This document shows, in pieces, positions 8,958 to 14,090 of a stretch of 64,000 nt of DNA. Source of the DNA: Escherichia coli. GTDB taxonomy: Bacteria > Pseudomonadota > Gammaproteobacteria > Enterobacterales > Enterobacteriaceae. The notes below the pieces were generated by a model. The model saw only the letters and a program-made list of their open reading frames with translations. It did no database searches and was not told where the DNA came from. The stretch lies in NCBI RefSeq assembly GCF_050920415.1, contig NZ_CP169309.1. One strand, written 5' to 3'. Made by a program: the position numbers and the translations under genes. The stretch's first letter is position 1. Every line of letters starts with the position of its first letter.

Positions 8958-9037
8958 GCACTTTTAGGAATAGCCGCCGTTCAAAAAAGTGTCACTGGTT
9001 TACACTTATTCAGGAATGCACAATGAACGGAGGTCCT

Positions 9038-9559
9038 ATGAAACGTTTTAGTCTGGCTATTCTGGCGCTGGTTGTTGCTACCGGCGCGCAAGCTGCCAGT
9101 GAAAAAGTCGAGATGAACCTCGTCACGTCGCAAGGGGTTGGGCAGTCAATTGGTAGCGTCACCATTACTGAAACCGATAAAGGTCTGGAGTTTTCGCCCG
9201 ATCTGAAAGCATTACCCCCCGGTGAACATGGCTTCCATATTCATGCCAAAGGAAGCTGCCAGCCAGCTACCAAAGATGGCAAAGCCACAGCGGCGGAATC
9301 CGCAGGCGGGCATCTTGATCCACAAAATACCGGTAAACATGAAGGGCCAGAAGGTGCTGGGCACTTAGGCGATCTGCCTGCGCTGGTTGTCAATAATGAC
9401 GGGAAAGCTACCGATGCCGTCATCGCGCCTCGTCTGAAATCACTGGATCAAGTCAAAGATAAAGCGCTGATGATCCACGTTGGTGGCGATAATATGTCCG
9501 ATCAACCTAAACCGCTGGGCGGTGGCGGTGAACGCTATGCCTGCGGTGTAATTAAGTAA
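9038..9559 (+). CDS. sodC: Periplasmic Cu/Zn superoxide dismutase
   Basis: ORF 9023..9559; start set at MKRFSLAILALVVATGAQA (signal peptide) giving 173 aa; Cu/Zn-SOD His-rich motifs. Confidence 0.93.
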   Translation: MKRFSLAILALVVATGAQAASEKVEMNLVTSQGVGQSIGSVTITETDKGLEFSPDLKALPPGEHGFHIHAKGSCQPATKDGKATAAESAGGHLDPQNTGKHEGPEGAGHLGDLPALVVNNDGKATDAVIAPRLKSLDQVKDKALMIHVGGDNMSDQPKPLGGGGERYACGVIK

Positions 9560-11572
9560 TTAAGAGGCCAGCGTACCTTGCGGCGGTGCTTGCTCAAGTT
9601 GCGAAAGCGAGCAGTACAGCCGCCAGACAATTGCCGCCAGGTCCTGGGCGGCAGGTTGATGATGACGGGCAAGGCTGTCGCAAATCCGCTGTAATTCTGC
9701 AAGTGTGGCCGCCAGTGATTTTTGCTGAACGCCACGCTCACTCATCACTCCACGTAACAATGAAATACAGTTATCCCGTACTCGCGATAACGGATCGGAA
9801 CGCGATTCCCATTCGCGCAATTGCCAGACAACATGAGAACAGTTCAACAACACCACCCCCCAGCGTAATAACCAACGGCGAGCCAGCGCATCCTGGCTGT
9901 TACTTAACTGACTGACGTGATGATAAGTGAGTGATTCAAAATCGCTTTCACTCAGTGTTGGATGGCGGCTTAGTTGGTCGACAAAATCCCGGCGCAGTGC
10001 GCGAATATGACGACGGCTTTTACGAGCATCCGACCCAGGTCGCAGAATGGCGAACGCTAGCCACGCCAGCGCTACGCCAACAATTTTTGCCAGATTATCA
10101 TTAAGAAAATCAGCGAAATCATACACCGGAGGATTAGTGACAGCGATAAACGACCCCATAAATACAATCAGTTGTCCCCAAAGCGCGGCAAATTTGGGCA
10201 TCTGCAATTTAAGAAGCTGCATTGTCGCCAGTAGTGGGAAGAGAAACAGTAAAAATTGCCACAGATCGCTAATCTGAACCATCAGGCCAAATTTGACCGC
10301 AAAGCTAAATAGCGAAAGTAACACTAGCGTGCGCATTAGCAGTGACAAGGACTTAAACGGTGCCGCGACGGCGGAGTAGAGTACGCAGCTAATTGCGGCC
10401 AGCGTTAATGCATTGGCACCGGCATCCCATTGTGAAGCGATACTCCATGCGCCAATTATCATCAATGTACAAAATGTTCGTAGTCCGCTCCACATAGCTT
10501 CGGCGTTATCGGTATGACGTGCCAGGCCGGATGTCCGTGGGAGTTTGGCATGATCATCTACGCCGCTTTGCAGACGATGTAATTCCTGACTGCTTTGCAG
10601 ATAAAGATGGCAAAAATAGCGTAGTCGCTGCCAGAAGGCGACGTGCCGGTAGTCGGCGACGTTGGTCGGGCGTAGCGGGGCAATAATACGTGCGACGGTG
10701 TAAACATCTGTTTGCGAACTGGCGAGCGCCGTCAGCAACTGTTCGAGAATTTCTCGTGTGGCACCTGGCGGTGAGGGCCAGTTGAGCAACATACGTCGCA
10801 GGCTGGAAATGACGCTGGTCATACGTAATTGCTGGTGGAGCAGCGCATTAAGGCGCGCGTTTTGCTGGCGAAAACGATAGTGGCTCCAGAAAGCCTGGAT
10901 ACGCAGCAAATTCATGGTCAGTATCTGCCCAATCACCCCCTCATGTGCTGCACGAATGGCATCGGTTGTTTCAGGCTGCCAGAGTAAACTGGCATGTTCC
11001 AGCAATCGGGCGTGCATGTTTTTCAATGCGGTTAAAAGGGCTGTAGCATCGGAACTGCTCGGCAGGATCATCATCATCATGCCGCCGCACAAAATACCGA
11101 CAATCACCTCGCAAACGCGCGCCTGAGCGATATCCCACAGCTGGCTGGCCTCAGTAATATTAACCATCGGAAAGGCGATGATGGCAGCCGTGTAGCCCGC
11201 CAGTTGAAATGCATACGCGACGTTATTCGTGAAGTGCGCACAGGCCCAGGTACAAAAGCCAATCCATGCTGACATACTCAATAGAAAAAACCACGGCTCG
11301 TTGAGCGTATGTCCGGCAAGAAGCAATGCCGCGATGGCTCCCAGCAAACTACCCGCGATGCGTCCGAGGCTTTTGCTGATCACACCGCCAACGGTGGGAA
11401 AGCTAACCACGGCAGCCGAGGTCATCGCCCAATAGGGCTCATCAAGATTCAAATAATAGGCAATCGTCAGCGCCAGACACATGGCAATGGTATTGCGTAA
11501 CGCATAACGCCATTGCGCCAGCGTGGCCCTGAACCAGGGCAAATTGCGCAAGGACCATGACGATGCACTCAT
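9560..11572 (-). CDS. ydhK: FUSC-family (AaeB-like) inner-membrane efflux protein YdhK
   Basis: ORF track 670 aa, multi-pass hydrophobic; last gene of ydhIJK. Confidence 0.9.
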
Positions 11573-12429
11573 TATTGACCTACGGCAATGCTACAGGTGG
11601 TGCCCGACACCAGCGTGACATCGCCTGGGACTTTATCCAGCGCAAAGCGGACCGGAACACGTTGGGCGAGGCGAACCCAGGGGACGTTAGGTTTCACATC
11701 CGGAATAAGGCTTGAGTCACTTTCAACGCTCTGATCATAAATCGCCCGACCGATACTGGAAACGTGACCCTGTAACGTTTTGTTATCACTATAGAGGGTA
11801 ATTTGTGCTGGTGCACCTTCGCGGATATGGCGCAACTTGGTTTCTTCAAAATAACCAATGACGTAAAACGAGTGGCTATCGACAAGAGCAAACAGCGGTT
11901 TCCCGGTGTCAGCGTAATCGCCGATGCGGGTAGTAAGATTAGTCACCCATCCGCTCACCGGGGCGCGAATTTCCGTTTGCGCCAGTTGCCATTGTGCCTG
12001 TTTCAACGTCGCCTGTGCGGCATCAACACTGGCCTGCATCGCTTTAACATTGAGGTTAGCGGTATCGAGTTCTTCGGCAGAAATAAAATTTTGTGAGAGA
12101 TGACGACGACGATTCGCTTCGTTATTGGCTTTTGCGAGGTCAGATTGCGCTTTCGCCAGCTGAGCCTGTGCGTTCAGCTCGGCGATCTGAAAGGGCGTTT
12201 TATCGATCGTGAGCAGAAGATCCCCCGCGTTAACCAGCTGGTTGTCTTTTATATTCAGCTCAACAATACGTCCCGACACCTGTGGGGTGATAGAAACCTG
12301 TTCTGCGCGTATTTTCCCGTCGCGTGTCCACGGAGATTGCATGTAATAATTCCACAGCCACCATCCGGCAAGAACCGCAACTACCGCTACAATGATTGTT
12401 GAGAAATACTTAATTGTTTTAATTGACAT
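11572..12429 (-). CDS. ydhJ: HlyD-family membrane fusion protein YdhJ (AaeA-like)
   Basis: ORF 11572..12471; start set at [19 protein letters not shown] (285 aa); single N-terminal TM plus coiled-coil region; stop overlaps ydhK start. Confidence 0.88.
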
Positions 12430-12431
12430 AG

Positions 12432-12668
12432 TTACCACGCAATCAGTATTGCCAGGGAAAGGCAAACGCAAATCGCAAACAGCGATAAATCCATTAACAA
12501 GGGATGCCAGATGTCACCGGCGTAGATCCAGCCACGAAGCAGGCGGTGTACGACAAGCCAGATGACGAATCCAAACGCGAAGGCTTTGAAAAACGGAGGA
12601 AAGTAGACGGACGCACCGAACACCAGATCTTGTAAGGGCAATCCTGTTGCATTGAGCATAAACTTCAC
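12432..12668 (-). CDS. ydhI: Small membrane protein YdhI (DUF1656, AaeX-like)
   Basis: ORF track 78 aa, two hydrophobic segments; first gene of ydhIJK, divergent from slyA. Confidence 0.85.
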
Positions 12669-12840
12669 AAAGTAGATTCCTTTACGACCGAATATATTGC
12701 GTTAGATTAATAAATATTCTTTAAGTGCGAAAAATTTACGCGCAATTTCTGAAAAGTATGTCTGACGGTAACCAAATGCAGCAATACATTTGTTTTAGCA
12801 ATACAATTGCTGCACACTATTCTAAAAGCCGCATAATATC

Positions 12841-12852
12841 TTAGCAAGCTAA
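12841..12852. promoter_or_regulatory. SlyA binding palindrome TTAGCAAGCTAA upstream of slyA
   Basis: Exact 12-bp palindrome matching the SlyA consensus, 11 bp upstream of the slyA ATG (autoregulatory site). Confidence 0.8.
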
Positions 12853-12862
12853 TTATAAGGAG

Positions 12863-13303
12863 ATGAAATTGGAATCGCCACTAGGTTCTGATCTGGCACG
12901 GTTGGTGCGCATATGGCGTGCTCTGATAGACCATCGCCTGAAACCGCTGGAGTTAACACAAACCCATTGGGTCACGTTACACAATATCCATCAGTTACCT
13001 CCAGACCAGTCGCAAATTCAACTGGCAAAAGCGATTGGCATCGAGCAGCCATCACTGGTCCGTACTCTGGACCAACTGGAAGAAAAAGGGTTAATTTCGC
13101 GTCAAACTTGTGCCAGCGATCGTCGGGCTAAACGTATTAAACTGACGGAAAAGGCAGAGCCGCTGATCAGCGAAATGGAAGCTGTTATTAACAAAACCCG
13201 CGCGGAAATTTTACATGGCATCTCCGCAGAGGAACTGGAACAACTGATTAAGCTCATCGCAAAACTTGAGCATAATATCATTGAGTTACAGGCCAAAGGG
13301 TGA
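12863..13303 (+). CDS. slyA: MarR-family transcriptional regulator SlyA
   Basis: ORF track 146 aa; winged-helix MarR sequence; an alternative TTG start at 12869 would give 144 aa. Confidence 0.93.
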
Positions 13304-13349
13304 AATAAAGGGGGCGTGTGGTCAGTAACCTGACCACACGCAAACTTAT

Positions 13350-13817
13350 TTAGCGCGGGGAAACGGTCACCTGACTGCCATTGCTGGCCAGTACGACACG
13401 TTGGCCCGGAGAGAAACGAGTGTTGCCTTGTTTCTGTACCACCATGATGGTATTACCATCGTCTTTACGAATTTCCAGCTCGACACCCTGCGTTTTGTTC
13501 ATTGCACTCTGTACGCCCTGACCGGCTACGCCACCTGCAACAGCGCCTGCTGCAGTAGCCAGAGAACGCCCGGTTCCGCCACCAACAGTATTCCCCAGGA
13601 AACCACCAAGAACAGCACCGCCAATTGCGCCGATAACGTTGGAATCATCACCGCCCTGAATCTGTACCGGACGTACGTTAACGATGGTGCCATAGCTGAC
13701 ATTCTGTACTTGTTTCGCTTCAGAAGCGGTATAAACATCCCCTGACAGGGTGTCGTTATTAACACAACCGACAAGAGACAGACCTACCATTGAAACAACC
13801 AATACGCGTTTAATCAT
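13350..13817 (-). CDS. slyB: Outer-membrane lipoprotein SlyB (Gly-rich)
   Basis: ORF track 155 aa; lipobox LVGC; glycine-zipper repeats. Confidence 0.93.
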   Translation of the reverse strand: MIKRVLVVSMVGLSLVGCVNNDTLSGDVYTASEAKQVQNVSYGTIVNVRPVQIQGGDDSNVIGAIGGAVLGGFLGNTVGGGTGRSLATAAGAVAGGVAGQGVQSAMNKTQGVELEIRKDDGNTIMVVQKQGNTRFSPGQRVVLASNGSQVTVSPR

Positions 13818-14090
13818 TGAAAAATCTCCTGTTCACCATGAAACGCCACGCAAGCATCCCTCATGGTCAAAGTATATGGCATATGTGAATCCATGGTTAC
13901 ATGTTCTACCAAATATGAGCAAATCATAATGAAAGTAGGATCAACCAATTATAAACAAAACATTCATGATGATTATTGATTTGAAGATAATGTTTTACTA
14001 CCAACGGTAAAAATCGGTCATTCCGCATGGTATTCACGAAAAGTTTATGTTTGAGTGGTGCGCAAACGTCAGATTGAAAAAGGATGAACT

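Follow-up and report, generated by a model that had tools for sequence, protein, structure and literature searches.

The closest characterized relatives of the proteins encoded by the ydhIJK operon of Escherichia coli are those of the AaeXAB system, in which the genes for a DUF1656 protein (AaeX), a membrane fusion protein (MFP; AaeA) and a FUSC transporter (AaeB) lie in that order beside a divergent regulator gene, aaeR, and in which AaeAB exports 4-hydroxybenzoate and related acids (PMC12506092). In Salmonella, the MarR-family regulator SlyA represses ydhI about 19-fold and its own gene about 5-fold in vitro, and salicylate relieves this repression; deletion of ydhIJK causes fusaric acid sensitivity and delayed growth, and a slyA mutant grows better in fusaric acid (Will et al., 2019; PMC6401476). 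Similarly, loss of the SlyA orthologue KvrA in Klebsiella pneumoniae increased YdhJ 45- to >100-fold (bioRxiv 845925). The E. coli SlyA protein has been shown by electrophoretic mobility shift assay to bind the 200-bp spacer between ydhI and slyA (Curran et al., 2017; PMC5797941).

Here we describe the ydhIJK-slyA locus in a stretch of 64,000 nucleotides (64 kb; the window) of the E. coli contig NZ_CP169309.1 (assembly GCF_050920415.1). Gene coordinates are those of the RefSeq annotation of strain MFDS1022581, which is 100% identical over window positions 9000-13900 and maps to the window one to one. The genes of the locus are as follows:

9560-11572, minus strand: ydhK, encoding a 670-amino acid inner-membrane transporter of the FUSC/ArAE family with two repeats
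11572-12429, minus strand: ydhJ, encoding a 285-amino acid membrane-anchored periplasmic adaptor (an MFP of the HlyD/EmrA type)
12432-12668, minus strand: ydhI, encoding a 78-amino acid DUF1656 protein with two hydrophobic helices, from a GTG start
12869-13303, plus strand: slyA, encoding a MarR-family regulator of 144 amino acids from a TTG start, divergent from ydhIJK

Based on the analyses below, ydhI, ydhJ and ydhK probably form an operon with translational coupling whose products export aromatic or lipophilic carboxylate anions across the inner membrane and are paralogues of AaeXAB. As a genome feature the locus is ordinary. The original prediction for this DNA, which was made from the sequence alone, read the operon correctly, and the layout, SlyA control, operator, AaeAB homology and open natural substrate are all already known from the literature. 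The checks it proposed have also largely been carried out in published work (SlyA binding, ydhI repression and the fusaric acid phenotype), and its statement that no physiological substrate is established in E. coli agrees with the most recent study, which notes the AaeAB homology and considers the physiological function still to be determined (Will et al., 2025; PMC12506092). Our analyses contribute candidate functional residues in YdhK (K67, R71, R152, Y120, W48, and T115), the proposal of a single operator over both promoters and an argument on the use of TolC from the length of the YdhJ hairpin. Knowing the substrate of the linked pump would help to explain what SlyA senses, given that virulence genes are under SlyA control and that aromatic carboxylates inactivate this regulator.

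The family assignments predicted for the three proteins, a DUF1656 protein, an HlyD-type fusion protein and a 670-amino acid FUSC pump, were borne out by Pfam. YdhK matches FUSC (PF04632) over residues 20-661 of 670 (E = 1.4e-140, 470.4 bits vs. a cut-off of 30.9), a full-length profile match that makes it a member of the FUSC/ArAE family (TC 2.A.85). YdhJ matches the HlyD_3, HlyD_D23, and CusB domains (E of about 1e-17) and scores 135.2 bits against TIGR01730, for which the cut-off is 94.9. Its AlphaFold2 model (predicted local distance difference test score, pLDDT, of 76) has a transmembrane helix at residues 3-30, hairpin helices at residues 78-109 and 118-150, and lipoyl and beta-barrel strands, so that all parts of a periplasmic adaptor (N-terminal anchor, lipoyl domain, alpha-hairpin and beta-barrel) are present. 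YdhI matches DUF1656 (PF07869; E = 2e-14, 53.7 bits vs. a cut-off of 26.5), has two hydrophobic helices as judged by hydropathy, and carries the conserved FPP and WHP motifs that are common to AaeX. DUF1656 proteins have been assigned as components of MFP-FUSC pumps from cofitness data (Price et al., bioRxiv 072470).

The resemblance to aaeXAB that had been predicted also held, as the K-12 aaeXAB locus has the same gene order and likewise a divergent regulator, and all three proteins are homologous: YdhK and AaeB share 24% identity (E = 6e-27), YdhJ and AaeA 41% (E = 5e-68), and YdhI and AaeX 33% (E = 1e-5). In addition, AaeA and YdhJ share a short hairpin, and neither locus has a gene for an outer-membrane factor. 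The scores of YdhK, YdhJ and YdhI against the AaeB, AaeA, and AaeX equivalog models (NF007916, NF007850, and NF008615) were 121, 243, and 21 bits, far below the cut-offs of 870, 400, and 82 bits, and we therefore consider the YdhIJK proteins paralogues rather than orthologues of AaeXAB. The systems differ in their regulators, a MarR-type repressor (SlyA) for ydhIJK and a LysR-type activator (AaeR) for aaeXAB; in substrates, which are defined for AaeAB (4-hydroxybenzoate and others); and at YdhK residue 115, a Thr that is replaced by Arg in AaeB.

The ydhIJK genes are a core, annotated and intact operon of E. coli. When positions 9000-13900 were compared with complete E. coli genomes, the locus was found in 5425 of 5426. 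The stop codon of ydhI lies 2 nt ahead of the ydhJ ATG, and that of ydhJ overlaps the ydhK ATG by 1 nt. For comparison outside the species we assembled 80 loci, all from Enterobacteriaceae, which were found with a narrow YdhK alignment and have 72-94% identity. All 80 have ydhI, ydhJ and ydhK together, with ydhI directly upstream of the MFP-FUSC pair, and a divergent slyA is present in 79, the lone exception being a truncated contig. The gap between ydhI and ydhJ varies from 2 to 10 nt, and in 58 of the 80 loci the end of ydhJ runs 1 or 4 nt into ydhK, a conserved overlap that indicates translational coupling. The GTG start of ydhI is kept in 77 of the 80 loci, with 99% conservation of its AAGGA Shine-Dalgarno sequence. 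The Salmonella Typhimurium and Klebsiella loci have the same genes in the same order with the same divergent regulator, and their YdhK proteins are 84-85% and 76% (K. pneumoniae) identical to that of E. coli, respectively. The list of open reading frames agreed with RefSeq except for two longer starts, ydhJ at TTG 12471 and slyA at ATG 12863. The former, which gives the longest ydhJ frame, was rejected in favor of the annotated ATG at 12429 based on the alignment of orthologues.

The AlphaFold2 model of YdhK, produced from an alignment of 91 sequences, is of high confidence (pLDDT 92.6, predicted template modeling score 0.90) and, together with hydropathy, divides the protein into two repeats, each with a membrane domain of about six helices followed by a cytoplasmic helical domain; there is no periplasmic domain. 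The repeat was also detected with hhalign (residues 17-196 vs. 356-536, probability 95.8%, E = 8e-9), and is visible only by profile-profile alignment, as BLASTP of the N-terminal half against the C-terminal half returned nothing (best E = 0.2). In the copy of the PDB that we searched, the fold of YdhK was matched by plant ALMT anion channels alone, and no structure of a bacterial FUSC-type exporter was among the entries. The ALMT channels are also found by the FUSC family profile at the sequence level (E = 2e-6 to 8e-6).

The plant ALMT/QUAC channels (AtALMT1, GmALMT12, and AtALMT9) resemble YdhK in having a six-helix membrane domain joined to a cytoplasmic helical domain and in a WA..TV..P..G..SK..R..GT motif that includes the pore W, K, R, and Y. 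The pore residues of ALMT12 are W90, K109, R113, and Y169 (PMC8890709), and these align with W48, K67, R71, and Y120 of YdhK, which thus has both the fold and the conserved pore motif of an ALMT. Between 88 and 91 of the 91 family members retain K67, R71, R152, and Y120, and the conserved basic residues occur in the first module of YdhK, not in the second. The ALMT channel is a homodimer of one module, whereas YdhK has two diverged modules in a single chain, and ALMTs are gated channels without periplasmic partners, whereas YdhK would work with an adaptor and a small subunit. YdhK therefore looks like a fused, asymmetric pseudo-dimer of the ALMT type whose predicted electropositive path would suit carboxylate anions. 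At one position, residue 115 (window positions about 11228-11230), YdhK has Thr where 69 of the 91 FUSC relatives, including AaeB, have Arg; its counterpart in ALMT12 is the pore residue R158, which makes position 115 a candidate determinant of specificity.

The divergent gene encodes a true SlyA. Its product matches Pfam MarR (E = 7e-17) and scores 277.6 bits against the NCBIfam SlyA equivalog, for which the cut-off is 120, and the consensus SlyA site is present in its own control region. The start of slyA affects the length of that region, which the original prediction gave as 194 bp, having taken the ATG at 12863. The divergence from slyA was as stated, and the spacer measures 200 bp in RefSeq, which, like the NCBIfam model, starts the 144-amino acid protein at TTG 12869. 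The equivalog alignment begins at residue 3 of the ATG-started frame; an AAGGAG Shine-Dalgarno sequence adjoins the ATG at 12863 and sits 6 nt ahead of the TTG. A UUG start for slyA was reportedly described by Corbett et al. in 2007. The features of the control region are as follows:

12669-12868, no strand assigned: divergent control region of 200 bp, in which the slyA-proximal 95 bp are conserved and the ydhI-proximal 105 bp are variable
12841-12852, plus strand: consensus SlyA operator, TTAGCAAGCTAA, lying 16 bp ahead of the slyA start codon (TTG)
12819-12847, minus strand: predicted sigma-70-like promoter toward ydhI, with a -35 of TTGCTA (12847-12842), a 17-bp spacer and a -10 of TAGAAT (12824-12819), matching the consensus at 9 of 12 positions in a promoter scan
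12831-12836, plus strand: candidate slyA -10, CATAAT, which is TATAAT in most genera of a 20-genus alignment
12702-12713: second SlyA-type site, TTAGATTAATAA, of the TTAN6TAA form, overlapping the sigma-E-like -10 and an FNR-like site
12702-12729, minus strand: sigma-E-like promoter, CGCACTT-N16-TCTAA, upstream of ydhI, found in a motif scan

The two halves of the spacer differ markedly in conservation: over the 79 loci with slyA, column identity to the window is 0.86 at 12774-12868 vs. 0.38 at 12669-12773. The operator lies in the conserved half. TTAGCAAGCTAA is an exact match to the SlyA consensus, occurs once in the window and in none of 100 dinucleotide-preserving shuffles, and is tabulated as the PslyA site (PMC5797941, Table 3). 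It was found unchanged in 78 of the 79 enterobacterial spacers, which range from 176 to 201 bp, and its distance to the slyA TTG is constant at 16 bp, Salmonella and Klebsiella included. The site had been described as a perfect SlyA palindrome, and although the match to the consensus is exact, it is not a strict palindrome, since the TTAGC and GCTAA arms (a 5+5 inverted repeat) enclose a non-palindromic central AA and the reverse complement differs at two positions. Relaxed sites with up to two mismatches were no commoner than expected by chance (3 found vs. 5.2 expected), so that only the exact site is meaningful, and the TTAN6TAA form showed a weak excess (19 occurrences vs. 12.2 expected). 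The second site, TTAGATTAATAA, is listed in the same published table at 161 bp upstream (PMC5797941).

The predicted -35 of the ydhI promoter lies within the SlyA box (12841-12852), and over the 79 loci the conservation of this -35 and its -10 is 1.00 and 0.95, respectively, while that of the candidate slyA -10 is 0.84. The latter would place the start of slyA transcription at or inside the SlyA box. For ydhI, transcription is predicted to begin near 12812 from the sigma-70-like promoter and near 12693 from the sigma-E-like one. From the positions of these motifs, we infer that the ydhI and slyA promoters interdigitate and that one SlyA dimer on the invariant operator, spanning the slyA transcript start and the ydhI -35, would shut both. 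Such an arrangement fits the in vitro repression of both ydhI and slyA. It would also follow the MarR paradigm, in which a winged-helix dimer on an inverted repeat overlaps promoters and aromatic carboxylates release it, with the differences that SlyA is in addition a global H-NS counter-silencer and that its linkage to the pump has been lost in many Enterobacterales.

Upstream of ydhI, E. coli would add a lineage-specific sigma-E promoter. The motif matches the sigma-E consensus at 5 of 7 and 5 of 5 positions, its region is not conserved outside E. coli (0.29-0.33), and the ydhI-proximal half of the spacer, along with this sigma-E-like promoter, is among the features that distinguish the E. 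coli locus from those of Salmonella and Klebsiella. The operon is a reported member of the sigma-E regulon with a sigma-E start site (PMC7075262; PMC2685091), and a chromatin immunoprecipitation site for FNR has been placed at -9.5 of a ydhI start (PMC1802558) whose implied position fits that of the sigma-E-like motif. As the SlyA-type site, the sigma-E-like promoter and the FNR-like site coincide at 12702-12713, three regulators may compete near ydhI.

The conserved half of the spacer also contains a 9-bp perfect inverted repeat, TGCAGCAAT and ATTGCTGCA (12777-12785 and 12806-12814), which flanks a 13-nt direct repeat, AGCAATACATTTG and AGCAATACAATTG. The inverted repeat (12777-12814) would form a 5' hairpin on the ydhI transcript and is not kept outside Escherichia. 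We considered a structured or riboswitch-like ydhI leader and rejected it based on the lack of an Rfam match, the finding that the 156-nt leader is no more stable than shuffled sequences (z = +0.87) and the restriction of the repeat to Escherichia; no Rfam family reached its gathering score anywhere in the window.

The mechanism that we favor is as follows. YdhK would be the transporter, its two homologous halves mimicking in one chain the ALMT homodimer, with K67, R71, R152, Y120, and W48 lining an anion path by homology to the ALMT pore. YdhJ would be an EmrA-like adaptor held by its single N-terminal helix and would form the periplasmic part of the system, and YdhI, with its two helices, would be an accessory subunit like those that occur together with, and are cofit with, MFP-FUSC pairs. 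Aromatic carboxylates such as salicylate would release SlyA from its operator and so derepress the pump, and the driving force is probably the membrane potential or the proton-motive force.

Several points weigh against this explanation. ALMTs are channels and FUSC proteins are classed as secondary carriers, and the likeness of fold does not fix how transport is coupled to energy. The presence of Thr115 in place of the Arg of most family members, the equivalent of ALMT12 R158, means that the pore chemistry of YdhK differs. The ydhI and slyA promoters were assigned by consensus matches and conservation only. In the literature that we searched there is no transport or resistance phenotype for ydhIJK in E. 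coli, and transporter tables based on TCDB still give ydhK as uncharacterized. Finally, overproduction of SlyA in K-12 chemostats raised ydhIJK expression 2.2-fold, which its authors read as activation (PMC5797941) and which is opposite in sign to the repression in Salmonella and Klebsiella.

It is quite possible, although we lean somewhat the other way, that YdhIJK serves as a "metabolic relief valve" for a putative endogenous metabolite of aromatic nature, that this metabolite may be the inactivator of SlyA, and that the pump tunes SlyA while fusaric acid resistance is incidental. This would refine our preferred explanation rather than exclude it. The export of 4-hydroxybenzoate and related acids by AaeAB is in keeping with such a role, as are the core status of the locus in E. 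coli and the signals that induce it, since both sigma-E and the stringent-response-type leuS mutations of quinolone-resistance mutants, in which the operon is induced, report internal stress rather than drugs. However, in the 2025 study the SlyA regulon was perturbed by mutation of tolC and not of ydhIJK (PMC12506092). In addition, the linkage of slyA to ydhJK is 95-100% in the core enteric cluster and weak elsewhere (PMC6401476), which points to other pumps for the ligands of SlyA.

A different question is whether YdhIJK releases its substrate into the periplasm or, which we consider the less likely, is a full tripartite pump that docks TolC like EmrAB-TolC and expels its substrate across the outer membrane. 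The best fold match of YdhJ is EmrA in EmrAB-TolC (E = 3e-17), with AcrA and MacA also matched, and YdhJ shares the architecture of EmrA and MdtN, including the absence of a membrane-proximal domain and the presence of the hairpin that adaptors use to meet outer-membrane channels. The paralogous MdtNOP system encodes its own outer-membrane factor, and MdtO is also a FUSC protein, although its similarity to YdhK is weak (24% over 198 residues, E = 2e-6); EmrB, by comparison, belongs to the MFS. On the other hand, no outer-membrane factor gene was found in or beside the operon in the window or in the 80 enterobacterial loci: mdtP has no counterpart there, and a DUF1656 gene stands where ytcA would be. 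When the four adaptors were aligned, the region of the hairpin comprised 46 residues in both YdhJ and AaeA, compared to 93 in EmrA and 99 in MdtN, that is, 47-53 residues fewer, and we infer that the YdhJ hairpin is about 35-40 Å shorter; YdhK has no periplasmic domain that would compensate. The short hairpin argues mildly against an EmrAB-like geometry, and a 2021 review gives the partner of the paralogous system as "AaeAB-?".

The length of the hairpin also varies among YdhJ orthologues, by 7 or 13-14 residues per arm, which is a further point against docking to TolC. The hairpin differs between genera because the two arms have gained insertions of matching size, near multiples of the heptad: +7/+7 in the YdhJ proteins of Klebsiella and Raoultella, and +13/+14 in those of four other loci. 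The E. coli version is the shortest.

A more radical view, which we offer tentatively and regard as unlikely, is that YdhK and by extension the other AaeB-type FUSC "pumps" are not proton antiporters but ALMT-like gated anion pathways, through which carboxylates would leave the cell driven by its inside-negative membrane potential. The anions would then pass into the periplasm, without TolC, by way of a vestibule made of the DUF1656 subunit and YdhJ with its short hairpin. As anions of this class also inactivate SlyA, the valve would set the intracellular level of the regulator's own ligand and hence the state of its virulence and counter-silencing regulon.

We regard as improbable the alternative that SlyA activates ydhIJK in E. 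coli, for instance through displacement of H-NS bound to the AT-rich spacer. It would account for the 2.2-fold increase upon SlyA overproduction in K-12 and for the binding of SlyA to the spacer (PMC5797941), and the ydhI-proximal half of the spacer is indeed AT-rich, diverged from that of Salmonella, and provided with the second TTAN6TAA site at 12702-12713. However, the 2.2-fold change is a small one, was obtained by overexpression from a plasmid, and could be indirect. Moreover, E. coli has an operator and an opposing -35 and -10 that are essentially the same as those of Salmonella and Klebsiella, where the 19-fold and 45- to >100-fold repression was measured.

Lastly, the idea of a cryptic operon that is decaying in E. 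coli and has no current function is very hard to credit. In its favor, there is no published E. coli phenotype in the literature searched, other Enterobacterales have repeatedly lost ydhIJK (PMC6401476), and overexpression of ydhK is toxic (PMC2685091). However, all but one of the 5426 genomes carry the locus, the reading frames are intact, the family-invariant residues, start codons, Shine-Dalgarno sequences and gene overlaps are all conserved, the 94 nucleotide vs. 13 amino acid changes in ydhK relative to K-12 indicate purifying selection, and ydhK is a transposon fitness hit in systemic infection by uropathogenic E. coli.

The divergence of the present strain from K-12 is uneven. At the nucleotide level ydhK differs by 4.67% and the adjacent sodC by 3.45%, while ydhJ, ydhI, slyA and slyB differ by 0.6-1.3%, and an identity of at least 99% over positions 9000-13900 was found in only 15 of the 5425 genomes. 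The sodC-ydhK stretch (9038-11572) looks like a recombination patch. Decay of the operon in this strain was ruled out, since ydhK, although divergent, has only 13 amino acid changes and an intact frame; sodC has four amino acid changes and its frame is likewise intact. The locus is bounded by the following features:

9038-9559, plus strand: sodC, from the RefSeq annotation mapped to the window
13314-13341, no strand assigned: GC-rich hairpin with a 12-bp stem between the convergent slyA and slyB
13350-13817, minus strand: slyB, from the RefSeq annotation mapped to the window

The convergent sodC and ydhK genes abut with no intergenic bases, the stop codon of sodC ending at 9559 and that of ydhK at 9560, and our terminator scan found no terminator between them. 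This pair has been catalogued as a convergent "excludon" (PMC12288877), and the junction (9552-9563) also fits TTAN6TAA. At the other end of the locus, the same scan identified the hairpin between slyA and slyB, which is terminator-like on both strands.

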